A DNA stretch of 24,000 nucleotides from assembly GCA_049514555.1 (NCBI GenBank), contig JBEKUY010000001.1, positions 58,923 to 82,922 on the forward strand, given 5' to 3'. The number at the start of each line of letters is the position of its first letter. Position 1 is the stretch's first letter. Origin of the DNA: Candidatus Acidiferrales bacterium. Lineage in GTDB: Bacteria; Acidobacteriota; Terriglobia; Acidiferrales; UBA7541. Below the pieces are notes generated by a model. That model saw nothing but the letters and a program-made list of their open reading frames with translations, searched no databases and was not told the origin of the DNA. The position numbers and the translations under genes were made by a program. This document shows, one piece after another, positions 4,487 through 24,000 of this stretch.

Positions 4487-5350
4487 ATGGGAACGACAAG
4501 GGTTCAAATCCAAGGCAATGCAGGAGTGCCGATCCGCTCCTTTGACGACTGGGAGAGCCACGCGCTGCCTCCCGCTCGTAAGGAACTACACTGGGAGACA
4601 GACCGAAGCGCGTGCGAACTGGGGCGAATCTGGACGGCCGGCGGCGAACCTGCCGTGCCACGTCAACTGGCTCAACTGCTTGAATCGCACGAAGGTACGA
4701 GACGCATGGTAATCCTCAGCGGAATCACGGAACGGGAAACGCCGTTGCCCTTCGGCAACCGGGGGCCACGCTGCCACGACTTGGCTTTGCAGGCTGAGCA
4801 GGATGGTCGTGTCGTGACCATCTGCATCGAAGCGAAAGCCGACGAGTCATTCGGCGGAACAATCACCGAAGAACTCAGCGCCGCGAGAAAAAGGGCGGCG
4901 AAGCGGGAAGGCGGCCACACGAGATTCCCAGAGCGCCTCGATTGGCTCACCCACTCATTGTTGGGACTCCGTGCCTTCGAGGATGCCCAGCACCAAGTGC
5001 TCGACGGGGTTGTCGCCGATCTGCCGTACCAACTGTTGCCTGCAATCGCTGGAACGCTGCTTGAGGCTGAGCACTTGAACGCTTCCAAGGCTGTCTTTGT
5101 CGTCCACGAGTTTCGGACGGCGAAGACGGCTGATGCCAACTTGGACGCCAACGCAGACGCGCTCAACCGCTTCCTCCGTGTCTTCCTGTCGGCAAACGGG
5201 GCAGGCGCAGGCGAGGACTTTGCGTTGGAAAACGGTCACATCGTTGGGCCAATCCTAGTCGCGAAGCGTCGTGTTACAGGCGCAGACAGAATCCCCTCCG
5301 AGATTCCGCTCTTCATCGGGAAAATCAGGACCGACCTCCTTGCGGCCTAG
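4487..5350 (+). CDS. PD-(D/E)xK nuclease-superfamily protein (DUF6946-like by memory), 287 aa
   Basis: The order HW.TDRSACELGRIW ... ERETPLPFGNRGPRCHDLAL ... VVTICIEAKADESFG gives a D ... E-x-K core (HDL / IEAK). The N-terminal HW..RSA.EL block is one I associate with that DUF. Confidence 0.65.
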   Translation: MGTTRVQIQGNAGVPIRSFDDWESHALPPARKELHWETDRSACELGRIWTAGGEPAVPRQLAQLLESHEGTRRMVILSGITERETPLPFGNRGPRCHDLALQAEQDGRVVTICIEAKADESFGGTITEELSAARKRAAKREGGHTRFPERLDWLTHSLLGLRAFEDAQHQVLDGVVADLPYQLLPAIAGTLLEAEHLNASKAVFVVHEFRTAKTADANLDANADALNRFLRVFLSANGAGAGEDFALENGHIVGPILVAKRRVTGADRIPSEIPLFIGKIRTDLLAA

Positions 5351-5465: not shown

Positions 5466-6278
5466 TCACGTTATCAAGCTTGTGAACGATCTCCCGTCCC
5501 GAATCAACTCCTCGACATCGTGGCGACTCACCGCTTCCTTCGGATGGGCACAGTTGTTCCCTATCTTGTAAAGCACATCCAGTCTTGCCCGCTGCACTTC
5601 CGTGATGACGCCCGTGTTCCTCAGCGAGAGCGTGATGTCGGTGAAGTCGGGATGCGCCTTGCTCGGCGGATTCGTGGCGATGGTCACGCCGCGTTCCTGA
5701 GCCACCGTTCGGAAGTGCCGTTCGAGCGCGACTCTGGCAACCACGCCGCTGGCGCGGGTGATCGTTTCCTCGTGCGAAGACTGGAGGAGATTCGAGGCAG
5801 TCTCGAACTCGTCGGCCGCCACGACGAAGCTCAAATCGCCCAAGATCGAAAGTTCCCTAGACTTGACCTCGGATACGCACGCGTTCAGCAGCGCCATAGC
5901 TTTTCCCATTTTCTGATTAAAGTACGGTAGGTTGGTCTTCACGCTCATTTGGTTGTAGAAGGGCATGTAGATGAAGTAGGAAATGCAGGAGAAATCCTTG
6001 CTCATCTTTGTCTTGTCTTGGATGTCCGGATAATAGGCCTCGTAGCACCAGTCGAACGCTTGCAGTCCGGAGAAGTTCTCCCGCTCCAACAGGCCGCGAG
6101 CGCCCCTGTACCATTCCTCGGCCTTGCGCTTGAGATCGGCGCTGCCCACGAGGTCTCCGTCCGCGAGAGCTTGGGCACACAGCAAGACCTCGGAGAAGAG
6201 CCTGTTCAGTTCCTTGATTCTCGCCTCAAGCTGCCTTAAGTGAGAAGACACCGAATCCGCTCCGCGTACCACCCTCAA
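5466..6278 (-). CDS. DUF4145-domain (HEPN-like) protein with an unrecognised N-terminal domain (270 aa)
   Basis: The C-terminus ASGVVARVALERHFRTVAQERGV...LSLRNTGVITEVQRARLDVLYKIGNNCAHP fits the DUF4145 pattern (..aLE..lr......L...g.I......l...r..GN.aaH). The start is uncertain: TTG 6278, GTG 6272 or GTG 6251, with no early ATG. Confidence 0.7.
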   Translation of the reverse strand: MRVVRGADSVSSHLRQLEARIKELNRLFSEVLLCAQALADGDLVGSADLKRKAEEWYRGARGLLERENFSGLQAFDWCYEAYYPDIQDKTKMSKDFSCISYFIYMPFYNQMSVKTNLPYFNQKMGKAMALLNACVSEVKSRELSILGDLSFVVAADEFETASNLLQSSHEETITRASGVVARVALERHFRTVAQERGVTIATNPPSKAHPDFTDITLSLRNTGVITEVQRARLDVLYKIGNNCAHPKEAVSRHDVEELIRDGRSFTSLIT

Positions 6279-6419: not shown

Positions 6420-7325
6420 TTAAAGGCCGTAGTGCTGCTTCAGCCACGCTGTGAGAAGCTCCGAACCGATTTTGACTCCAACCTTCACGCCCCCGGCCAT
6501 AACCTTCGAGGCCTTGTCCTTTACCCATTCCCCAACCTTGCCGCCGGGTTTGTTGCCGTCCGCCTCCATCGCTTGGGTGAGGCTGTCCAAGTCCGGCTTG
6601 TCCAATCCCGCATTGCTCAGAATACGGTCAAGCGCCTGCCTGTCGCCCACGTTGATAACAGTCTCGCTCTGCGTCGATGAAATGCTCGCTTGCCCGAAAG
6701 CAAGGTACGTGTTCCCACCAGTATTCTGGATGATGATGTTCTGGATTTTCTCTGCATCGGAAGGTTCTATCTTGCGAAGGTCACTATAAGATGTGCCCAG
6801 TTCGTCCCTAATCTCCAGAGCCATTTTTAGCGTGCGATTTCGGACGGCGTCCAGCACTTCCACAAGGACATTCACGGGTATCTCCTGCCACGCCGAATGG
6901 CAGATGAAGCCTCCCTGCATGAGGCGCTGTTGGTAGTACACGACCATGTCGCCGGGCCAAGGAAACACAAACGAGCCTGTGGTGGCGTTTTTGATTAGGT
7001 CGGAGTAGGCGCTCACCGATTGAGCTAGAGGAAGCATCGTGGCCCAATGCCGGTGCCTCTCCTCTAAGGCAACAGGAGGGATGATGTGGTTGTTGCGCTG
7101 TATGTATCCCGGCCCGACGAAATTGCCCTTTGCCCTTCCATGCACAGTCCTGTAATCAGGAAGGTCTTGCCCGTCTTGGTAGCCGTTGAGTTCTTGGGTC
7201 GCCCATGCCTTGAGCCGCTCGTTCTTTAGCTCATGGCCGAGCCGCAGGCATTTTCTAAGAATGTCTGGCAACGGATACTTGCCATCAGTAGCAGCCTCGA
7301 TAATCTCATCGAGTAGGGACGACAT
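6420..7325 (-). CDS. AbiTii-domain abortive-infection protein (301 aa)
   Basis: The N-terminus MSSLLDEIIEAATDGKYPLPDILRKCLRLGHELKNERLKAWATQELNGYQDGQDLPDYRTV matches the AbiTii signature (LL.eii..a.d....l...LRk...La..l.n..l..W...ELnGY....lP.YR). ATG 7325 is 3 nt after the stop of the upstream gene. Confidence 0.75.
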   Translation of the reverse strand: MSSLLDEIIEAATDGKYPLPDILRKCLRLGHELKNERLKAWATQELNGYQDGQDLPDYRTVHGRAKGNFVGPGYIQRNNHIIPPVALEERHRHWATMLPLAQSVSAYSDLIKNATTGSFVFPWPGDMVVYYQQRLMQGGFICHSAWQEIPVNVLVEVLDAVRNRTLKMALEIRDELGTSYSDLRKIEPSDAEKIQNIIIQNTGGNTYLAFGQASISSTQSETVINVGDRQALDRILSNAGLDKPDLDSLTQAMEADGNKPGGKVGEWVKDKASKVMAGGVKVGVKIGSELLTAWLKQHYGL

Positions 7326-8483: not shown

Positions 8484-8653
8484 GGGTGACGGCCTTCATT
8501 ATAGTTTTGATCCATGCTAACCTGAACGTCGACGTGCGAACCTCTTCGCCCAAACAGAAAGAAAACAAGCTCGGGCATTACGGACTCGGCACCGACGCGC
8601 CGTGGTACCAACCGCAAACGCTTTCTAAAGCCGAGCGCAACGCCTTCAGCGAG

Positions 8654-9763
8654 ATGGCAAGACGCTCCGCCGAGGCGAAGCGTCGCTCGCTGGAGGGCAA
8701 CTCCGTTCCCAAGCATGAGATAAATACTCCGAAGCTCGATCCGGAAACGCTCATGCCGCAGCTTCAGCGAAACGGGCTGCGGGCTCTCTCGTTGTTCAGC
8801 GGCGGGGGCGGCTTAGACTTGGGATTCGACAGGGCGGGCTTCGAGCACGTCGCATCATACGAAGTTGTGACGGATGCCGCCGCCACCTTGTCGGCGAATC
8901 GCCCGGAATGGGACGTGAGGTCTGGGGATGAAGGGGACGTGACGCGGGTGGATTGGAGGAAGATCAAGGCTGATGTAATCCACGCGGGGCCTCCTTGCCA
9001 GCCGTTCAGTTCGGCTGGGCGGCAACTCGGGCACAAGGACGAGCGCAACCTGTTCCCCGAGTTCATCCGCGCCGTACGGGGAATCAAGCCGCTAGCGTTC
9101 GCCGCCGAGAATGTCCGTGCTCTCATGAACGGTAAGTTCAGCCAATTCGTGCAGGAGCAGATCGTGCAGCCACTCTCCCGTGACTATGCGGTGTACGTCT
9201 TCGACCTGACCGCTGCCTCGTTCGGCGTCCCGCAGGTGCGGACTAGGGTATTCTTCGTGGGGTTCCGCCTCGGACTGAAGGTCGAGTATCACCAGCCGTC
9301 GCCCACCCACTACTTCGAACACCTCAAGGGTGACGAGATTCCCCCGATGGCGCAAATGATGAGGGGGGTTGAGTTCCTGCGATGCATGGGCGCACGTGAG
9401 GCGCTCGGCCTGCCGGACATCGGCTTCGACGCGCTCGCGCCCACGCTGCGCAGCGGCCTCACTGGGCCTCGCCACACCACGTCCATCCTTAGCAGCGTGT
9501 CTGCCCTGAAGCTCTGGAACAAGCTGCAAATCTGGCCTAACGGGGTGGCTGCCTCACGCGAGGCGGCGCAGCGGTTCGTGCCCGACAACGGCCATTTCCG
9601 CCTAAGCGTGCCGGACTGTGCGTTGCTTCAGGGCTTCCCTGATTCTTGGAAATTCAGCGGCGCTGTGTACAAGTCAATCGGGCAGATCGGAAATTCCGTC
9701 GCGCCGCCGATGGCGTATCAGGTCGGCTTGTCTATCTTGCGTGCGCTTTCCGCCGCGGTGTGA
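8654..9763 (+). CDS. DNA (cytosine-5)-methyltransferase
   Basis: Motif I LSLFSGGGGLDLGF, motif IV GPPCQPFSSAGR, motif VI AAENVRALM, motif VIII QVRTRVFFVGF, motif X GNSVAPPMA. The track start GTG 8486 is only 2 nt from the divergent vsr ATG and is almost certainly over-extended. ATG 8654 (used here) and ATG 8753 are the plausible starts. Confidence 0.93.
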   Translation: MARRSAEAKRRSLEGNSVPKHEINTPKLDPETLMPQLQRNGLRALSLFSGGGGLDLGFDRAGFEHVASYEVVTDAAATLSANRPEWDVRSGDEGDVTRVDWRKIKADVIHAGPPCQPFSSAGRQLGHKDERNLFPEFIRAVRGIKPLAFAAENVRALMNGKFSQFVQEQIVQPLSRDYAVYVFDLTAASFGVPQVRTRVFFVGFRLGLKVEYHQPSPTHYFEHLKGDEIPPMAQMMRGVEFLRCMGAREALGLPDIGFDALAPTLRSGLTGPRHTTSILSSVSALKLWNKLQIWPNGVAASREAAQRFVPDNGHFRLSVPDCALLQGFPDSWKFSGAVYKSIGQIGNSVAPPMAYQVGLSILRALSAAV

Positions 9764-10449
9764 GCGGCTTTCTCCAAGTCCTTTGCCTCTTCTTCCAAGG
9801 CCTTCGCCACAAGCTCCCGCAGGCGCTCCGCATGACGCTTCGTGATACGCTCCCAGCCATTGAAATAGGTTCCGGGGATGTGCGGGTTGTTCAGGGTAGA
9901 GCCGCGGGAGATAACGTAGCCGCAACGCTCCCTCAATATGTCCAGCATGCGCTCCGGAGAGTAGCCGTCCTTAAGGTCACGCCGCTCAAGGTACTGCGCG
10001 GCGCTGTATTGCCGCTTGTGGAGCAGTCTAGCGTCTTCGACACTGTACTTTTCCCTCTTCCCCAGCAAGTGATACAGCAGGTCGAGGGGGATCAGGGAAG
10101 GCACAGTTTTCGCAAGCTCGAAGTCCACCCGGATGTATTCTTCCTTTTCCCTGACCCACGGGGCCATCATTTTCGGTGATCCGTAAACGCAGTACCTCAA
10201 CGTGGTGCCATCCTTCTCGTAAAACCCAATAAGCCAATGCTTGTGTTTCCATTTAGCGACATGGTCAGGTCCGAAATCCCTGACCGTCGTGACGGAGTCG
10301 TCGGTTGAGGACTTAAGCTCAAAAGGGATTTCCACGCCCTTCCCGACCACCAGTTTCGCATCCGTGTCGGCACGCCCCGCGCCTTCGATCCGTTCCAGCT
10401 TGAACAATTTGATCAGTTGGCGTTCGCGTGCATCGTCTTGAACTACCAT
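9718..10449 (-). CDS. candidate type II restriction endonuclease (PD-(D/E)xK), cognate to the adjacent C5-MTase
   Basis: RADTDAKLVVGKGVEIPFELKSSTDD gives D-x(n)-E-x-K with the ELK(S/T)(S/T) flavour seen in MutH/Sau3AI/MvaI-BcnI-type enzymes. It converges on the MTase gene with a 46-nt 3' overlap (9718-9763). Start taken at ATG 10449 (MVVQDD...); the track ORF extends to 10485. Confidence 0.5.
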   Translation of the reverse strand: MVVQDDARERQLIKLFKLERIEGAGRADTDAKLVVGKGVEIPFELKSSTDDSVTTVRDFGPDHVAKWKHKHWLIGFYEKDGTTLRYCVYGSPKMMAPWVREKEEYIRVDFELAKTVPSLIPLDLLYHLLGKREKYSVEDARLLHKRQYSAAQYLERRDLKDGYSPERMLDILRERCGYVISRGSTLNNPHIPGTYFNGWERITKRHAERLRELVAKALEEEAKDLEKAAHTAAESARKIDKPT

Positions 10450-10684
10450 GGCAGCAGAGTCCCCGTCCGCGCCACAGACACACACAGCAACTTTGCAGGC
10501 ATGGTCGGTATGATATTTTCAGAGGCCTGAAAAGGCCAGAGGAAATCATGACGAGACGGGTACCAAGAAGCGGGGTCAGGTTTGATTGCTCACTGTACGG
10601 AAAACTGTGGAAGGGCGATCCAGAGCACGCCCGGCTCGTGGATATCCTTGAGGGCGTAACGAAGTCGTCCGCAAGGACTTTCGT

Positions 10685-11439: not shown

Positions 11440-13197
11440 TTAGACGCGTTCCTCTAGCTTATCTTCGAACCGCTGAATTCTTTTCTTGAAGGTTCTATTG
11501 AATTCTCGTCCACTCGCACGAAGATATGCTTCGAAGTCTGGTCCTAACCCTTTGCGCTTGAAAAATGTGGATACGTCAATTGCCTTCTCGCCCTTTCCCT
11601 TCTTGTGCCTGTAAAACGATAAAGCGGCACGGAATATCGTGTCGATGGCATCGCTCAGGTAGCCGACAGGGGAACTATGCCTTTCAGAAGCCTCACGAAA
11701 AGCATCCGCAAGTGCCCTCGACCTTATGAGCGGTGCAACACGTGACCACATAAACTGGAGCACCAGCCATGTTGCATAGGCTCGCTCCGGGTATCCCTTG
11801 GAGCGGTGACGAACTTCGTATTTGAGCCTGAAGCGATTGAGATAAAAATACGGGTCGCTTGTCGGGAATACTTTTGGATACAGGTGTTCTTCGAACAGGC
11901 CCTCTTTCCCCTCACGCACTATGGCGGGGTCGAGTTCGCAACCCGCTATGGCTTGAGCTATCTCCTCCTTGGTGACGACCCGCTGGTGCGCCCCAACAAA
12001 ACGTCGTGCCTCGCTCTTGGACTGGCGCTTGCGGAGGTAGTAGTAGTTGAACTTTCGAAGCTCTCGCTCAATTTCAATCTGGCGGCGGTCATTCGCCATC
12101 AGGTCTGAGGGACGAATGGCGTTCTGGAGGTTTGTGGCTGCGACGATACGCGAAACGAGCATGTCGAATTTTTCTGATCCTGACTTCAGGTCTCGCGGCA
12201 CCATAATAGCCTTTACCAGTACGGAAGCTGCTGAGCCGTGGGAATCGGCATCGTGTAAGGTTCGAGTGGTTTGTTGACCGTTGATGATCTGTGGATTCGA
12301 CACACGCATCACATCCCGGCCGCCGATACTTATACGCTCGGCGTGATCGCATATCATTGTTATGCCATTGTTGTAATACCAGAAATTCCAAGGTTCCGTT
12401 CTCAAGGTGTCCTGCATCCCTCGATTGACTTGCGTGGATTTTCCAAGAAAACCACGGACGTTCCTCGCAAATAGCCTAATACCTGCTGTTTCGTACATTT
12501 CAGCAACAGCGAAAGTGTTCATGGAAAAAATCCAAGCAGTGATGTTCTCGCGGGCGTCATGTCTTCGATGGCACTCGCTGGTTACGCCCTTTCCTATTTC
12601 TAAAGGGAGATCAAGGGAAGGAACGGGAGGTGCAACACCGTCCAGGAAATCACTGAGTCTGAGGAGGACCGACTTCCCGTCAAATATCTCTATATCCGCA
12701 GGACCATCGGCTCGACGGCACCTCTGCTCAGCCTCTTGGACGAGAGACCCACTGCATTTAGCGGTCGTTACAAAATACAACTTGAGTCTATAACTTCGCT
12801 TTCGCAGGCACTCTCTTGCGTAACGGAATTTCTCGTGTACTCGCGGGTCTATTTCCTTTAGAAACGCTTTGAAGTCCTGATCGCTACCGTGGAGATCGCA
12901 CGCCAACTGGGCAAACGAGATTACATCCGGTCTGGATTCGTTCCCGTTGTTGATCTTTTTGTGGTACTTCCCTTGTACCACGCATACAACTTTAGAGTGA
13001 TCGTCGGTGAGAACAGCGTCTGTTCCCTTATCACGTGAGTGGCCCGTGAGTGCGGCGGCAGCATCCTTCTCATCACCCGTGACTGTCGCATTCAGGAACC
13101 ACAGAAGAAACAGTTCATCGTCTTTCAGACGAGGGAAGCGATTGCGAACGTCTTCAAGTTGATTGTGTAAGTCCTTTTCAGTAAGAAGAACTCGCAT
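11440..13197 (-). CDS. AIPR-family abortive infection protein
   Basis: LFARNVRGFLGKSTQVNRGMQDTLRTEPWNFWYYNNGITMICD...VSNPQIINGQQTTRTL is the AIPR core. Start taken at ATG 13197 (MRVLLTEKD), which has GGAGG at 13202-13206. The track ORF runs to 13284. Confidence 0.9.
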   Translation of the reverse strand: MRVLLTEKDLHNQLEDVRNRFPRLKDDELFLLWFLNATVTGDEKDAAAALTGHSRDKGTDAVLTDDHSKVVCVVQGKYHKKINNGNESRPDVISFAQLACDLHGSDQDFKAFLKEIDPRVHEKFRYARECLRKRSYRLKLYFVTTAKCSGSLVQEAEQRCRRADGPADIEIFDGKSVLLRLSDFLDGVAPPVPSLDLPLEIGKGVTSECHRRHDARENITAWIFSMNTFAVAEMYETAGIRLFARNVRGFLGKSTQVNRGMQDTLRTEPWNFWYYNNGITMICDHAERISIGGRDVMRVSNPQIINGQQTTRTLHDADSHGSAASVLVKAIMVPRDLKSGSEKFDMLVSRIVAATNLQNAIRPSDLMANDRRQIEIERELRKFNYYYLRKRQSKSEARRFVGAHQRVVTKEEIAQAIAGCELDPAIVREGKEGLFEEHLYPKVFPTSDPYFYLNRFRLKYEVRHRSKGYPERAYATWLVLQFMWSRVAPLIRSRALADAFREASERHSSPVGYLSDAIDTIFRAALSFYRHKKGKGEKAIDVSTFFKRKGLGPDFEAYLRASGREFNRTFKKRIQRFEDKLEERV

Positions 13198-13471
13198 CGA
13201 GCCTCCAGTGAGATTGGGGCGAGATTTTGGTTTTGCACTCAGCAATCCTCGGAGCTTCAGGCAATCCCGGCAACGGGGCATCACTACCTTTACGGCAATA
13301 TACTCCCTATGTGTGTCAAATGTTGCCCACGCAGACGCTTTGATTCTGTCCTTCGTTCTTTTTCTTTGTTGTGACGCCCGTCACCCTAGGGGGCAAACCC
13401 CAGCAAACGAGATTGCCATAGATGGGTACGCGTGGAAGGAGACCTCTCGTAAGAGCATTGTTGTGTTTCGA

Positions 13472-13500: not shown

Positions 13501-14970
13501 TCATTCTGAGACATGCTGAAGCATTTCTACGAGCCCTACCATTGCCAGTGTGTCCTGCCCGCAGTAATCGAGCAGCGCCTTCCTTTTCCTCTGGCGCTCG
13601 GCCTCGCCGCCATTACCGTCGATAAGCGACTCCCAAGCAAGTCCGGCAGCCTGCCCGTCCGACACTTCCAATCCATCGTACGACATCTCTGGCACTAGTG
13701 CCGGGAGCACCGATTTCAGCGAATAGGAGCCACCAAACGCCGGATGGTAGACATGATTGCGGATAACTGGCAGCAAATCACAGAGCCGCTGCTGAATCTT
13801 CTTTATCCGCGGCGAGAACCTCGGCAGCCACGACGCAAGTTCGTCGAGCCGCTGCGACTCAAACTGCTGGTAGTACACAACGATGCTGCCGCGATCCCCA
13901 AGGGCATCGCACAGGGCCGACATGAACGCAGGGCGAGGGTCACTCTTGTCGCTTGCCAAGAATTCGAGATGCTCGGCCGCTGCGCCCGGTTGTCGCTGCA
14001 AGTGCACACTCCACTGAAAAGGTAGGTGGTCGTACGGTCGCATGCCAGCGAACCGTGGAATCGCGGGGTTCACTGTCTCGAAGTCCATGAAGCACAGCGG
14101 GTATTCAAGGCGTTCGAACTCCTGCTTAACCTTGGGATCGAACCACGGCCTCCCCATCTGCACGGCGGAACACGCACGACGGAGCCGGCAGGAGAGCGGG
14201 TAGTTTTCCGGAATGTCGTGGATGGATTCGATGCCGAGTTCGGTCAGCTTTGCGACCGTCTTAGCGTGAATCCTGGGGAGCCGCAAGATGTGATCTTCAG
14301 GAAGCGCAGGATTGCAGTGATCGAAGAACTCACAAGTAACAGGTTCGCTGCACTGGGGTCCGGCGGGGATTCGTGGAGCCTCGGGCATGGTAAGGACACG
14401 AAATTCAGAGCGGAGTTGCAAAGTTACGTCGGGCTGTAACTCCTCCACCTGCTTGGTCAGGTTCTTGATTTTGAAGAAACGCCACACATCGATTGGGCCA
14501 CCCTCGTAGACATACGCTCTATTCACATGGGCGAGACATGACGCCGCCAGATCGACTCCGGAGCGAGTCAGCACCCGGTGCTGGACCGCAATGTCGTCAA
14601 GATGGTGGTCTTTGACATCCGTTGTCGATTTGACCTCGATCAGCCGCCAGCGTTGGTCCGAGCGGCGGCGGAGAATATCAACCCTCACAAAAACGTCCCC
14701 GTGCTCGAATGCGCCCTCGAAGATCGCCGTGCGTTCCGAATTTTGCATAAGCTCACGAGTGGCTCGGATCGCCTGTTCTCGGTCTTTGGGCTCGACGGTT
14801 ACGCCTCCCGGAAACATCTCCCGCGCCAGACGACCGACCTCTTGCCCCTGATCGATGATCGCTTGCCCCGACTCGCTCGGCTGCGCCGCGAGTTCAGGCT
14901 CGTGGACAAGGAGATACAAACGCTTTAGGCATTGTGTCCCCGCGACGAACTTGGACTTCGTAATGAGCAT
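13501..14970 (-). CDS. DUF2779-family protein: N-terminal Cas4-like PD-(D/E)xK domain plus C-terminal RNase-H-like (DEDD-type) domain
   Basis: MLITKSKFVAGTQCLKRLYL..., FVRVDILRR...WRLIEVKSTT (D...EVK), LCFMDFETVNPAIPRF...PFQWSVH..., GSYSLKSVLPALVP and LLDYCGQDTLAMV follow the DUF2779 order. The family N-terminus favours ATG 14970. ATG 15027 and the track start 15117 are alternatives; 15117 would overlap the upstream gene. Confidence 0.9.
   Translation of the reverse strand: MLITKSKFVAGTQCLKRLYLLVHEPELAAQPSESGQAIIDQGQEVGRLAREMFPGGVTVEPKDREQAIRATRELMQNSERTAIFEGAFEHGDVFVRVDILRRRSDQRWRLIEVKSTTDVKDHHLDDIAVQHRVLTRSGVDLAASCLAHVNRAYVYEGGPIDVWRFFKIKNLTKQVEELQPDVTLQLRSEFRVLTMPEAPRIPAGPQCSEPVTCEFFDHCNPALPEDHILRLPRIHAKTVAKLTELGIESIHDIPENYPLSCRLRRACSAVQMGRPWFDPKVKQEFERLEYPLCFMDFETVNPAIPRFAGMRPYDHLPFQWSVHLQRQPGAAAEHLEFLASDKSDPRPAFMSALCDALGDRGSIVVYYQQFESQRLDELASWLPRFSPRIKKIQQRLCDLLPVIRNHVYHPAFGGSYSLKSVLPALVPEMSYDGLEVSDGQAAGLAWESLIDGNGGEAERQRKRKALLDYCGQDTLAMVGLVEMLQHVSE
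13565..13581. repeat. right copy of the exact 17-bp direct repeat TAATCGAGCAGCGCCTT (inside the DUF2779 3' coding end)
   Basis: Read directly from the sequence. On the minus strand it encodes KALLDY of the conserved LLDYCGQDT block. Confidence 0.85.
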
Positions 14971-15073
14971 CGGCGATCTGCTCTCGAAATCTTCGCCCTG
15001 CTCCAGGTTGGTCAGCGTCGATTCCATGGCGTTTGGAGCCCAAATAGGTACTACACGAGAGCCGGGTCGAACG

Positions 15074-15358
15074 TCAGCGGATGCCCCCGGTGCTCCAGAG
15101 GATTCCGATAAGCTCACGCGGAGTCGTCCGGTTCCAGCCCTTGTCCGTGGAGGCTCGTTTCATCTCCGTGGGCAGCAGTGCCCAGGCGGTCTCGTCCCGG
15201 TACTCCAAAATCCAGTCTTGTCTGTCGTCGATCACGAACCAGCCGAGGTCTTCGTCCCGGACGGCGATCTCCAGGCCGCCGTCCGGCGCTCTTTGGACAC
15301 GGATGTTCGGCACGTAGACGCCGTTGAGCCGAATGCGAAACTCGGGTCTCGACAACAT
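15074..15358 (-). CDS. hypothetical protein (94 aa)
   Basis: ATG 15358 (MLSRPEFRIRLNG...) is preferred over the track's GTG 15382. It is co-directional and closely spaced between the small repeat protein and the DUF2779 gene. No family recognised. Confidence 0.5.
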   Translation of the reverse strand: MLSRPEFRIRLNGVYVPNIRVQRAPDGGLEIAVRDEDLGWFVIDDRQDWILEYRDETAWALLPTEMKRASTDKGWNRTTPRELIGILWSTGGIR

Positions 15359-20435: not shown

Positions 20436-21014
20436 CTAGGTAGGTTTGCGCCACACGGCCTCATATTTGTTGAATGAGCGTGCGAGGTACACAGTGGCCA
20501 AATGACTCTCCTGCGCGAATCGGTCTAGGTCTTCAGCGGTGAGATAGCCCAGGCTCCTGGAAATCTTCTTGCCGAGGAACGCCACCCATTTGGGAAGAGC
20601 GAAATCCTTATAGATAAGACAGCCGTTCGGCTTCAAAACCCTCAGCATTTGGCGGAGCGCATCCTGCCAATCGGGGATGTGGTGCGTCACCATATGGGTG
20701 GCGACGAAATCGAATTCGTTGTCGTCAAACGGCAACTTGGTTCCGTTGGCAGTGAGAAATCGGACGTGTGTCGTCTGATCGCTCTTCGCCCGTGCCGCCT
20801 CAATTTGCCCAGGATCGACATCTATTCCCGTCACCTGGAGACCCAGCTTTGACGCCAGAAAGTTTGCCGCTGCTCCGTTCCCGCACCCAAAATCCAAATA
20901 GCTCTGTCCGGGTGCAAACCCTGCCAGTCTCAGCATCTTTTCGGCGTACTCGGCAACTCGCCGACTACGCCTCGGGCTGTTGACGAAGAACTTCTCGAAC
21001 TTGGTCATCTTCAT
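20436..21014 (-). CDS. class I SAM-dependent methyltransferase (192 aa)
   Basis: Motif I YLDFGCGNGAAANFLA, then VTGIDVDPGQIE, FDFVATHMVTHHI and LKPNGCLIY. ATG 21014 has AGGAGGAGG 8 nt upstream. The track start TTG 21047 is over-extended. Confidence 0.85.
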   Translation of the reverse strand: MKMTKFEKFFVNSPRRSRRVAEYAEKMLRLAGFAPGQSYLDFGCGNGAAANFLASKLGLQVTGIDVDPGQIEAARAKSDQTTHVRFLTANGTKLPFDDNEFDFVATHMVTHHIPDWQDALRQMLRVLKPNGCLIYKDFALPKWVAFLGKKISRSLGYLTAEDLDRFAQESHLATVYLARSFNKYEAVWRKPT

Positions 21015-21124
21015 GCGCTTGGCCTCCTCCTGAGAACGCCCGCCCAAAGACCATTGCTAACGATACCCACGGAATCACCCTAGCACATGTGGTAGCGACG
21101 ACTGGCGAGTCCGGGCCGCAAGCT

Positions 21125-21594: not shown

Positions 21595-21978
21595 CTATCT
21601 GTGTCGCCAGTAAAACGTGCCCCAAAACTGCCGTGGGCATGCATCCGTCCCAGCTTCCGGATTCTTAGACATGTACCAACGCTCGCCGCGTTCACGGACA
21701 CGGTTGACGATTACCCGTCGCACCAAGGAGCCCAGCGTCTTCCCGGCCTGCTCAGCATCTCCTATGGTTTCGTAAAGCGGTTGGAACGGTGTTCCCTGCC
21801 AGTTGCTACCCGGCATCCAACTTGAGGCGAAAAAGTCGCTTGGGTCTTCGGTGATCGCATCAGCCCACGCGTTGATGGCATCTACCATCTGGCTAACATG
21901 TTGATGGGGGATTCTTGCAAGGACTGCATTCAGGTCCTGCTCGAATGGAATGCTGGAGTTTGCCTTGATTTCCTGCAT
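21595..21978 (-). CDS. hypothetical protein (127 aa)
   Basis: ATG 21978 with AAGGAA upstream. Soluble, Trp-rich sequence. Co-directional with the MBL/TM cluster. No family recognised. Confidence 0.55.
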   Translation of the reverse strand: MQEIKANSSIPFEQDLNAVLARIPHQHVSQMVDAINAWADAITEDPSDFFASSWMPGSNWQGTPFQPLYETIGDAEQAGKTLGSLVRRVIVNRVRERGERWYMSKNPEAGTDACPRQFWGTFYWRHR

Positions 21979-22031
21979 CGATGAGTTTCCTTCCCAGAGC
22001 GACTGGTCATGAACGGATTCGCCTCCGGAGT

Positions 22032-22280
22032 CTAGCGGGACTGTTCAGGCGACCTGATGTCACCTGCCAGTTTGACGCGCGACATGCCCACGCTAACGTT
22101 CGATCCCGACGCCACCGCAGTGCTGATGACAGAAATCGTGCCGCCAGTTGGAATCTCGTAATGGATGTGCCACGGTTCCGCAAGCGCCTCGCATGCGCCA
22201 TCGTGCGCGGAACAAGTGGGAGCGAAGCTTTGAGCCAGGAGCGTTCCGCTGATGATCACAACACCGGCTTTTACGACCAT
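22032..22280 (-). CDS. small predicted secreted protein (82 aa)
   Basis: ATG 22280 is preceded by GGAGG (22285-22289). The N-terminus MVVKAGVVIISGTLLAQSFAPTCSA looks like a signal peptide. Confidence 0.55.
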   Translation of the reverse strand: MVVKAGVVIISGTLLAQSFAPTCSAHDGACEALAEPWHIHYEIPTGGTISVISTAVASGSNVSVGMSRVKLAGDIRSPEQSR

Positions 22281-22304
22281 GACACCTCCTCAATCGAGAG
22301 AGGT

Positions 22305-23045
22305 TCAGCTTGACACCGGGATGTGGCTCCGGTCTTTGCTGAGTTGCAGGAACGTTGTCCAAGCAAGTTCAGCGTATCTCTCCGCGATGCGTTTAGTCGC
22401 CTTGGGAAGCACACGCCAGCCAACGTAACCAGCGCAAGCGAGCGAAAGACAACTGACCATGACGGCAGGGTTGAAGAACCCGGAGTGGGTCGTTGCACTG
22501 CGCCAAACAGCAACCACTATTGAGCCAACCGCTACGAAGGCCCACAGCATTCTTCCACCCAAAAGATTTCGGCAGAACCCGTATTCGATGTTGTTCTTTT
22601 GCCAAACCCCAGTGGGGTCAAAGCTGCGCAAGAAGCCGCGAACGCGCTCGAAGGCATCGGCGATGGCCTTGTCGGCACGGGCCGTGTCCTTCTTTTCCTC
22701 AGCGGGGGTAGGCAGCGATACAGCAAACTCCTGTCTCACCGCAGAGCGGATCGAATTCTTCAAATCCGCCCCGAAAAACGTGTCGCTGGAACGCATCAGT
22801 CTGGTCGACGGCGGTCCACCCCACTGTCTCCACAAAGCAGGTTCAACCTGCTGCCCTTCCGCTCGAATGACGTAACCCAGTCCATAGATCAGCGCAAGCG
22901 TGATGATCCCGCTGGCCGCGAATATCGGTAAACTGCTCAACGCCGGCATCACGTAAATCACATCGACCAAGGCTGGCAACGCGACAATCAGTCCCGGCGC
23001 AATCCGTGCCTTCAATTCGTACTCATCCAGAAATTTGTCCATCAT
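22305..23045 (-). CDS. integral membrane protein, 2+2 TM helices around a ~95-aa soluble loop (246 aa)
   Basis: MMDKFLDEYELKARIAPGLIVALPALVDVIYVMPALSSLPIFAASGIITLALIYGLGYVI ... MLWAFVAVGSIVVAVW...FFNPAVMVSCLSLACAGYVGW. ATG 23045 overlaps the upstream TGA (23042-23044) as ATGA. Confidence 0.75.
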   Translation of the reverse strand: MMDKFLDEYELKARIAPGLIVALPALVDVIYVMPALSSLPIFAASGIITLALIYGLGYVIRAEGQQVEPALWRQWGGPPSTRLMRSSDTFFGADLKNSIRSAVRQEFAVSLPTPAEEKKDTARADKAIADAFERVRGFLRSFDPTGVWQKNNIEYGFCRNLLGGRMLWAFVAVGSIVVAVWRSATTHSGFFNPAVMVSCLSLACAGYVGWRVLPKATKRIAERYAELAWTTFLQLSKDRSHIPVSS

Positions 23046-24000
23046 AGTCTTCCGGGTACCCCTCCAAACCATTCCGCGAACGGAGGTGGATCAGCGTTGC
23101 CTTTGAGCGGAATTGCTTCTCCGTAGTTAGAGCGGTACGGAACACCTCCGATCCAATACCACAAGTGACCTTGCGTGTGCGTGCTGAAGACCTTTGTCCC
23201 AACCTTTATCAAGCCATTCACGATTGCGCGATCTGGGTGGCTCGAATCTCCAACAGCAGACACGAAAGCAACTCTCGGGCAGAAACGTTCAATGTTCGCT
23301 TGTGAGAGATTTCCATCGCTGCCATGGTGTGGAACTTGCATCCACAACAGGTTCTTCCACAAGGAAGGCACCGCGTCCAGCGCCTCGGAACCTGCGTCCG
23401 CAGTGAATAAGAATTTGTTGCCGTTAAATTCCATGCCCAGAATGGCGCTCGTGTTGTTGAACGGTTGGGTTTTCGGATTTTCGTCCACGCTAGATTTGCT
23501 GAGTACACCCAAAAGCGTCGCCGATAGATCGAAGGCTGACGGGGTCTTCGGAGGTGGCGTTAACGGGCCAGCGAGGAACGAAAGAGGCAATGCTGGAGGA
23601 AAACTCGGTGGTGGAGACAGCATGCTCCTCAAGTAGCTCGTTGGCAGATGCGGCATCACTGGTGGGTACGACGGGGCCGGTCTTTGGGCAGCAGCAAGAG
23701 CCGACAGAAACGATCCATATGCAGGAACTGGCTCACCGATAGATTCCTCCAGCGCCTGTTTGTAAAAGTGTTGCGTCGGGCCCAGAACGGACAAACCGGG
23801 TAGGTGAGAAATAGTCTGCCCCGCGAATGGTTCCGGAGGCGTGATGTCGCGGCTGGCGAATGCGCTTGCCAACTCTCTCGTCGTTTCGAGCGCCTCTTTG
23901 ACGCCTTCGGCTTGTGATGAGTTCCCGGACGATGCACGGCGCAATGTATCTGCGCTCGCGTGCCTCTGCATATCGTGCATCCAGCCAAAGGTAATGGAGA
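23042..24000 (-). CDS. MBL-fold hydrolase of the ComEC/Rec2-related type with a proline-rich insertion, partial (N-terminus probably beyond the right edge)
   Basis: LSVLGPTQ ... NNTSAILGMEFNGNKFLFTADAGSEALD ... LWMQVPHHGSDGNLS ... RVAFVSAVGDSSHPD ... GTKVFSTHTQGHLWY follows the C-terminal half of ComEC-type MBL domains. No HxHxDH motif is present, and the frame stays open from 23980 to base 24000. An insertion of about 100 aa (AQRPAPSYPPVMPHLPTS...PPPSFPPALPLSFLAGPLTPPPKTPS) is Pro-rich. Confidence 0.75.
   Translation of the reverse strand, partial: SITFGWMHDMQRHASADTLRRASSGNSSQAEGVKEALETTRELASAFASRDITPPEPFAGQTISHLPGLSVLGPTQHFYKQALEESIGEPVPAYGSFLSALAAAQRPAPSYPPVMPHLPTSYLRSMLSPPPSFPPALPLSFLAGPLTPPPKTPSAFDLSATLLGVLSKSSVDENPKTQPFNNTSAILGMEFNGNKFLFTADAGSEALDAVPSLWKNLLWMQVPHHGSDGNLSQANIERFCPRVAFVSAVGDSSHPDRAIVNGLIKVGTKVFSTHTQGHLWYWIGGVPYRSNYGEAIPLKGNADPPPFAEWFGGVPGRL

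Follow-up and report, generated by a model that had tools for sequence, protein, structure and literature searches.

The 24,000-nucleotide stretch of Candidatus Acidiferrales DNA analyzed here (contig JBEKUY010000001.1; hereafter the window) carries at its end a gene for a hydrolase of the metallo-beta-lactamase (MBL) fold that is translationally coupled to a gene for a membrane protein with four transmembrane (TM) helices, which we call the TM protein. The conserved unit at this locus is the pair of MBL and TM genes, two genes rather than the four that an earlier note on this DNA had grouped into one system. We consider it highly probable that the pair is a conserved two-gene defense-type cassette related to the anti-phage system 6A-MBL. 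With moderate confidence, we read the cassette as a whole as a mobile two-gene anti-phage system in which a latent nuclease is licensed by its membrane partner.

A translationally coupled and co-conserved gene pair

GTDB species genomes were scanned for loci that encode the TM protein. The scan returned 163 loci, the best 80 of which were examined, and our tally covers 81 non-redundant loci with the window's own counted in. The open reading frames (ORFs) at these loci were searched with profiles of the TM protein, the MBL, and a large protein that is encoded immediately upstream of TM in 19 loci. This large protein is 725-790 aa long and combines Prok-E2_A, ThiF (E1), and Prok-JAB domains (hereafter E2-E1-JAB). 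The sample was entered through the TM protein, and the share of MBLs or of 6A operons that have a TM partner rests on few independent probes.

The earlier note had hung its reading on the two genes occurring together in other genomes, and they clearly do. The 81 loci come from many phyla; 69 of them have an MBL homolog within 5 kb, and in 46 the MBL gene directly abuts the TM gene, in both gene orders. In 41 of the 45 pairs for which the spacing was measured, it falls between -11 and +12 nt, and 12 of these have the same 4-nt overlap as the window. Loci of the window type, in which an MBL abuts TM with no E2-E1-JAB gene within 5 kb, account for 38 of the 81, and 26 have an MBL and an E2-E1-JAB gene together. 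An MBL lies within 5 kb without being adjacent to TM in four loci, one locus has E2-E1-JAB only, and 12 have neither. Pairwise distances among the MBLs and among the TM proteins co-vary (Mantel r = 0.70, a value reached by none of 2,000 permutations). Close relatives, with 58-85% identity to the window genes, keep the MBL-ATGA-TM arrangement and differ in the genes downstream.

The earlier note had described four co-directional ORFs on the minus strand, an ATGA overlap between the first two, and a strong Shine-Dalgarno sequence with short spacers further down, and the layout is correct in each of these respects (Table 1). The MBL frame ends in ...GGA AGA CTA TGA on the minus strand, with its stop codon at 23044-23042, and the TM gene starts with ATG ATG GAC AAA at 23045 and stops at 22305-22307. 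The overlap is thus genuine. An upstream ATG at 23072 is not supported as the TM start, because homologs begin with MMDKF or MIEKF. A 24-nt spacer containing GAGGAGG separates the TM stop from an ORF of 82 aa, and a gap of 53 nt leads from there to an ORF of 127 aa. At the other end, the MBL gene crosses the end of the window, and its first 87 codons, which encode HLHNDH, lie outside.

The setting of the pair is that of defense and mobile elements. In the window, the defense island proposed in the earlier note is borne out by genes for AbiTii, a C5 DNA methylase, and AIPR/AbiU (Table 1) and by a resolvase. Elsewhere, the pair lies between hsdM and hsdS of a type I restriction-modification operon (L072 and L076) and, on a Rhodococcus plasmid, beside a DUF262 gene. 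TM homologs are encoded on five viral contigs of IMG/VR, and in each case the neighbor is an MBL (three) or E2-E1-JAB gene (two). In the P2-like Ralstonia phage YO009_3 (L093:2742-4636), the pair is found between the genes for the baseplate spike gpV and a gpS-like virion morphogenesis protein, on the strand opposite to the structural genes and with the same 4-nt overlap. The same slot holds a PIN-domain gene in phage RSA1 (L094:2561-3502) and a transposase in RSY1, and it looks like a defense hotspot inside the tail module. CapP-type (Peptidase_M78) regulators precede the pair or operon in many 6A loci, and WYL regulators are also found upstream. A search around the window operon gave no tRNA or Rfam features, and GC content is flat.

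The full MBL gene was read from the same contig in public peat or soil metagenome assemblies (loci L001-L003), found by an exact look-up of the TM protein. It encodes 405 aa. The N-terminal part holds GDADS, DGG, and H69-L-H-N-D-H74, so that extension to the right recovers the HxHxDH half that the earlier note expected there. FNNTS...FTADAG spans residues 267-290 and PHHGS residues 310-314 (HHGS is at 23329-23318 in the window). In an alignment of 37 homologs, H69-L-H-N-D-H74, N268, D288, and H311-H312 are invariant and all canonical metal ligands are kept. The two C-terminal blocks, which the earlier note had called ComEC-like, are invariant in the family and lie inside the stretch that matches the ComEC_Rec2 model TIGR00361. 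This match scores 37.1 bits (E 1e-9) against a curated cutoff of 190 bits, and only the C-terminal 105 residues are aligned. Pfam gives only Lactamase_B (E 3e-7, N-terminal) and Lactamase_B_2. We obtained an AlphaFold2 (AF2) model with a predicted local distance difference test (pLDDT) score of 80.6. Its best Foldseek match is the ComEC MBL domain 9ic4 (E 4e-14, target-normalized TM-score 0.74), followed by the pneumococcal phosphorylcholine esterase Pce (E 9e-9 to 3e-8), and Apyc1 is also among the matches (E 1.4e-3). When the MBL profile was searched against PDB sequences, ComEC chains came first (E 1e-13 and 1.6e-10). No signal peptide was found on the 405-aa protein. True ComEC identity was rejected on the score far below the cutoff, the lack of Competence and DUF4131 domains, and the defense-type context, which rules out the competence or housekeeping ComEC that the earlier note had named as a possible outcome. 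The window MBL is a soluble enzyme of the ComEC type and not a ComEC.

The proline-rich insertion in the middle of the MBL (Table 1) is real, as the earlier note had it. However, it is not unusual among defense-type MBLs, in which a long middle segment is normal, and the Avs1a model spans a comparable gap. The insertion is hypervariable in length, and it is short or absent in MBLs of other phyla.

The TM protein is all-helical in its AF2 model (pLDDT 89.5), and the model, hydropathy, and the positive-inside rule agree on the four TM helices first noticed in the sequence, at residues ~15-33, 39-60, 166-186, and 197-218 of 246. TM2 and TM3 are separated by a helical domain of ~105 aa, and TM4 is followed by a long helix. 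The Lys+Arg count is 17.9 in the large domain versus 0.1-0.2 in the two short loops, so that the two termini and the large domain are assigned to the cytoplasm. Among 78 diverse members of the family, the invariant positions are Y9, A13, R14, P17, P79, T81, E117, E154-Y-G-F-x-R-N-L-x-G163, and Y224. All of them are on the cytoplasmic face, and the EYGFxRNLxG block is just before TM3. The family has 121 close homologs and 2,855 representative clusters (50% identity, E <= 1e-3, in a library of 1.84 billion proteins). Members are found in Acidobacteriota, Bacteroidota, Patescibacteria, Actinomycetota, and Pseudomonadota, in one Methanosaeta metagenome-assembled genome (MAG), and on plasmids and phages.

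Scans of the TM, 82-aa, and 127-aa proteins with Pfam, NCBIfam, and PADLOC gave no family, only sub-threshold matches to DUF6232 and DUF2207_C that reflect TM composition. The earlier note had looked to Foldseek for a fold resemblance of the TM protein, and none emerged: searches of the model against PDB and BFVD and of the TM profile against PDB sequences gave nothing significant. The arrangement of TM2, a large cytoplasmic loop, and TM3 is similar to that in MotA and PomA. However, the Foldseek matches to MotA, PomA, and ExbB are insignificant (E >= 0.25), and identity as a stator of the MotA/ExbB/TolQ type was rejected (best E 0.25-0.3, TM-score ~0.27, no match in the PDB profile search). 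A role as an intramembrane protease was also rejected; the invariant residues include no His, Ser, or Asp catalytic constellation. Two further architectures were seen in the family. P0278 (549 aa) has a Lipase_3 domain (Pfam E 3e-26) fused N-terminally to the four-TM module. In P0383 (511 aa), a JAB domain is continuous with the TM module, either as a real fusion or through a frameshift at the usual 4-nt overlap.

Relation to 6A-MBL and other known systems

Operon type 6a was defined by Iyer, Burroughs & Aravind in 2006 as two genes, with no membrane protein (PMC1779556). 6A-MBL has been reported as an anti-phage system in Pseudomonas aeruginosa (PMC13276650) and is among the listed defenses against jumbo phages (10.1101/2025.09.30.679545). 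It has also been placed alongside type II CBASS and Pycsar as a pathway whose own enzyme is conjugated by a fused E2-E1 (PMC11601596). In our sample, 26 loci have the operon order MBL (of a more divergent kind), E2-E1-JAB, TM. Sampling by way of E2-E1-JAB gave TM as the third gene of a Hymenobacter plasmid operon (E 5.8e-11), and the third gene of a Paenibacillus plasmid operon is a borderline match to the TM family (E 0.007-0.29). On the Acinetobacter baumannii plasmid pOXA58_005078 (L085, 530-5762), a WYL regulator gene and then a TM-family gene are divergent from genes for an MBL-like protein, E2-E1-JAB, and a further hypothetical protein. A member of the four-TM family regularly occupies the third position in 6a/6A-MBL operons. 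The earlier note knew of no named system that this locus matches; this place of the TM family in a known type of operon speaks against that, as do the matches of the MBL to the PADLOC candidate PDC-M48B and, more weakly, to LmuA, the DRT-associated MBL, and Avs1a. Two side observations concern the distribution of such operons. The arrangement on pOXA58_005078, which is found on clinical plasmids, appears to be shared by at least 11-15 plasmids of Acinetobacter, and a megablast search of a Citrobacter 6A operon against complete E. coli genomes gave no match.

The MBLs encoded upstream of E2-E1-JAB have a low-complexity tail that ends in Gly in 20 of 25 cases (...IDNKPMG, ...SRAGRAG, ...PQTYG; examples in Table 1). 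A tail of this kind is the hallmark of a substrate of ubiquitin-like conjugation, and we infer this feature for the 6A-type MBLs from their sequences. A few of them have one or two extra residues at the end (TYGF, RAGC, PMGGQ), which the JAB peptidase could trim. The window MBL ends in ...FGGVPGRL, and among the 38 TM-adjacent MBLs an ...xG end like that of 6A is absent, apart from chance. A profile of the window-type MBL misses the MBLs located upstream of E2-E1-JAB. The window-type and 6A-type MBLs are distinct subclasses, and both are present in five loci.

A search with a profile built from 19 E2-E1-JAB proteins gave no match in the 24-kb window, in the 10 kb beyond the MBL gene, or in loci L001-L010. 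The window cassette thus lacks the defining component of 6A-MBL and stands outside that system. The two share a homologous, specialized ComEC-like MBL, which in the window belongs to the TM-adjacent subclass, and they share the same four-TM family, an association found here and outside the 2006 definition. Both also occur in defense or mobile contexts with CapP or WYL regulators. Unlike 6A-MBL, the window locus encodes no E2-E1-JAB, and a conjugatable C-terminal Gly is missing from its MBL. The window cassette is best described as a minimal, conjugation-free relative of 6A-MBL.

A second set of relatives consists of the MBLs associated with Avs1/2/4, HamM of HamMAB, and the DRT-associated MBL, which are protease-linked zymogen effectors (Evans et al. 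2025, PMC12642450). These are latent Zn-dependent nucleases of double-stranded DNA (dsDNA), in which linkers block the active site for as long as they stay uncut (PMC12642450). The window MBL is likewise defense-associated and ComEC-related, falls with them in the range of ~340-400 aa, and has a long middle segment. In PADLOC it matches PDC-M48B (E 2.8e-23 and 1.7e-21), LmuA (3e-16), DRT RTasMBL (1.6e-11), and Avs1a (6e-7), and the likeness to Avs1a, LmuA, and RTasMBL is found with PADLOC and NCBIfam. By analogy, it probably has the same activity, that of a latent Zn-dependent dsDNA nuclease. However, it matches Avs1a only weakly (E 6e-7 and 3e-3, well under the curated cutoff), and its operon partner is a membrane protein, with no protease encoded, be it of the trypsin, caspase, or subtilisin type. 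One protease gene lies at a distance: an ORF for a retropepsin-like aspartyl protease (Asp_protease_2, E 5e-7; L001:5230-5817) is on the same strand ~3 kb beyond the MBL start. We mention it because related MBLs are activated by proteases; it is separated from the cassette by five small genes on the opposite strand and is probably unrelated.

In the literature, the MBL domain of ComEC is a nuclease, and this domain is the closest relative of the window MBL in both solved structure and sequence. ComEC/Rec2 and the window cassette have in common the HxHxDH, NxxS, (T/G)GD, and HHGS motifs and the combination of a membrane component with an MBL. In contrast to ComEC, the window MBL stands alone as a soluble 405-aa protein that scores 37 versus the required 190 bits and has no Competence or DUF4131 domain, and its TM partner has no Pfam match and is unrelated to the ComEC channel. 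The likeness to PDC-M48 is confined to one component. The window MBL matches PDC-M48B, and a TM-adjacent MBL from Flavobacteriaceae (L047) does so over its full length (E 6e-103), whereas no PDC-M48A was found among 13 neighboring proteins or in related loci. We rejected the TM protein as a PDC-M48A, since a PADLOC search with eight TM proteins of different phyla gave no match. A limited literature search gave nothing on PDC-M48 or on a system of MBL and TM. Kiwa (KwaA/KwaB) and Zorya also have a multi-pass membrane protein that is tightly coupled to a DNA-targeting partner. This likeness is an analogy only, with no detectable homology to the MBL and TM pair.

Proposed roles of the two proteins

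If the cassette is an anti-phage system, the division of labor that we prefer has the MBL as the nuclease effector and TM as a sensor, regulator, or anchor. This assignment is somewhat more tentative than the overall reading. We favor the MBL as the effector because its clade is the effector in every characterized context. TM is favored as the hub because its partners swap among effector-type hydrolases (MBL, REase-ARP, patatin, and a fused Lipase_3), and such a pattern, a constant hub with exchangeable enzymes, usually marks a sensor, regulator, or anchor. We postulate that the MBL is a cytoplasmic, ComEC-like enzyme, most likely a Zn/Mn-dependent DNA nuclease, that is kept latent. The cytoplasmic face of TM, composed of the N-terminal helix, the ~105-aa domain, and the EYGFxRNLxG block, would dock and control the nuclease. 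An infection cue that acts at or through the membrane, or via the cytoplasmic domain, could then license the nuclease, and DNA would be degraded. Both the physical complex of MBL and TM and the nature of the trigger are things we infer. In the 6A-MBL operon, the same TM family is the third gene, and the paralogous Gly-ended MBL would be the substrate of conjugation.

Several observations weigh against these roles. Of the 81 TM loci, 12 are without an MBL. The characterized defense MBLs are activated by a linked protease, and there is none in this operon. The TM gene is in the slot held by effectors in type II CBASS and Pycsar operons, and the Corbett laboratory terms the conjugated MBL a "signaling enzyme" (PMC11601596). 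Lastly, the outer loops of TM are just 5-10 residues long, which bears on its role as a sensor.

The gene positions could mean that the cassette works in the manner of CBASS or Pycsar, with the MBL as a sensor or as an enzyme that makes or processes a signal, and with TM as the effector that binds the product through its cytoplasmic domain and depolarizes or permeabilizes the membrane, leading to abortive infection. In 6A operons, the MBL has the position of the CD-NTase, upstream of E2-E1-JAB and with a disordered tail that ends in Gly in 20 of 25 cases, the TM gene has that of the effector, and it is the conjugated proteins that are called signaling enzymes (PMC11601596). In addition, some enzymes of the MBL fold are phosphodiesterases of cyclic nucleotides, one of which, Apyc1, is found among the structural matches (Foldseek E 1.4e-3), and TM has a highly conserved, pocket-like cytoplasmic motif. 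However, the nearest relatives of the window-type MBL are the nuclease domains of ComEC and MBLs with demonstrated nuclease activity on dsDNA. The other partners of TM are classic effector hydrolases (a restriction endonuclease (REase), patatin, and a fused lipase), which would be odd if TM did the killing, and the helices and cytoplasmic face of TM are unusually conserved for a generic membrane disruptor. We think that such a signaling scheme is unlikely. The earlier note had proposed an effector pair with TM as a membrane disruptor or anchor. The pair stands, given an MBL of the ComEC type outside competence, co-conservation, and the defense and mobile context; a disruptor role for TM is possible and is not the better-supported one. 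A different way of using the membrane would be interception at the site of entry, as in a split ComEC: TM would tether the nuclease under the inner membrane, and injected phage DNA would be degraded as a form of direct immunity. ComEC itself is a membrane channel fused to such an MBL nuclease, the TM protein has both termini inside and a large cytoplasmic platform, and the tight translational coupling suggests a roughly stoichiometric complex. We nevertheless regard entry-site interception as quite unlikely, since TM resembles neither the Competence domain of ComEC nor any solved fold and since self DNA would need protection.

Two more distant alternatives concern the number of genes and the biological function. 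The MBL, TM, the secreted 82-aa protein, and the 127-aa protein might act together as a four-gene system, as the earlier note had it. The four genes are co-directional with short spacers, a strong Shine-Dalgarno sequence precedes the 82-aa gene, and an 82-aa homolog with 59% identity again comes directly after TM in two loci of one related lineage (L089:4633-6004 and L090). In that lineage, TM is 74% identical to that of the window, and the TM gene and the 82-aa homolog are intact and overlap by 4 nt, but the MBL is cut to 123 aa. They are either a decaying copy or a unit of TM and small protein that persists without the nuclease. No 82-aa homolog was found in the other scanned loci, and both small genes are absent from those loci and from the close relatives L087, L088, and L091. 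The 127-aa protein has only 11 homologs, in unrelated neighborhoods. A beta-oxidation operon, a Prim-Pol element, and the end of a contig harbor those that could be located, and none of these is beside an MBL or TM gene. We therefore consider joint action of all four genes very improbable, and the 82-aa gene may be a lineage-specific add-on rather than part of the core. It is just as hard to believe that the pair has no part in defense, either as a competence-related ComEC fragment or as a Pce-like phosphodiesterase that remodels the envelope or lipid head groups together with its membrane partner. Pce is the second-best structural match of the MBL (E 9e-9 to 3e-8), and lipase and patatin are alternative partners of TM. 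Nonetheless, the MBL falls far short of the ComEC cutoff, lacks Competence and DUF4131 domains, and carries no signal peptide, and its context is consistently that of defense and mobile elements, including the phage cargo slot and the association with E2-E1-JAB.

ComEC-like defense MBL nucleases are emerging as common latent effectors, and the known switches for them are a linked protease or handling by E2-E1-JAB. A nuclease of this kind that is translationally coupled to an uncharacterized four-TM protein alone would be a third and very common wiring, and the cassette, with just two genes, offers a small system for studying the licensing of such nucleases when no proteolysis is involved. It also suggests that a membrane component of the 6A-MBL pathway has been missed, which could be a conjugation target, an anchor, or an effector, and it adds a TM family of several thousand clusters that is not covered by Pfam, NCBIfam, or PADLOC. 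We speculate, as a possibility that we would not count on, that the TM family is a new and widespread membrane immune hub. It would be both an unrecognized third component of 6A-MBL and the core of a stand-alone two-gene system, and it would couple a membrane signal (DNA injection or envelope stress) to the licensing of a ComEC-like nuclease, or of a swapped lipase or REase, with no protease or conjugation step.

Other features of the window and variant loci

Table 1. Features of the cassette and of the surrounding island, by position in the window, and examples of Gly-ended MBLs from other loci
Feature	Coordinates	Strand	Remarks
MBL-fold hydrolase gene, 3' 318 codons	23042..24000	-	full gene 405 aa, L001:8787-10004
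Disordered, proline-rich, hypervariable insertion in MBL, residues 183-240	23540..23713	-	pLDDT <50
ComEC-type C-terminal catalytic blocks N268-x-T-S, T286-A-D288-A-G, P310-H-H-G-S314	23318..23458	-	invariant columns
MBL/TM stop-start overlap ATGA	23042..23045	-	sequence
Gene for 246-aa four-TM inner-membrane protein	22305..23045	-	AF2 model and topology
82-aa small protein, hydrophobic N-terminus	22032..22280	-	possible lineage-restricted accessory gene
127-aa ORF	21595..21978	-	adjoins the system but judged outside it, from homolog contexts
Class-I SAM methyltransferase (Methyltransf_11, E 2e-27)	20436-21047	-	also PADLOC MADS mad2, E 4e-19
DUF2779	13504-15117		window island
AIPR/AbiU	11443-13284		window island
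Unannotated 255-aa ORF overlapping C5 methylase	9721-10485	-	could be its restriction partner
C5 DNA methylase	8486-9760		window island
AbiTii	6423-7325		window island
DUF4145	5469-6278		window island
DUF6946	4487-5347		window island
Gly-ended MBL examples	L083:4534-5625; L044; L047:4648-5784; L103:2420-3493; L104:2464-3495		set L011-L083

The methyltransferase gene in the window is co-directional with the 127-aa ORF and follows ~550 nt downstream of it; at other loci, it is not a conserved neighbor of the pair.

In the 12 TM loci without an MBL (in the set L017-L029, from Acidobacteriota MAGs; for example, L018:8836-9669 and L017:8916-9944), TM is followed either by a gene for a REase-ARP nuclease (Pfam E 3e-39) or by genes for a beta-propeller protein and an FAD/NAD oxidoreductase. 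The Runella slithyformis plasmid pRUNSL03 (L092, 4251-12678) has three MBL genes in a row with differing partners. The order is MBL, a SEC-C-domain protein, TM, and MBL, followed by MBL and a serine protease of >1,000 aa, and the region is a compact showcase of partner swapping by MBLs.

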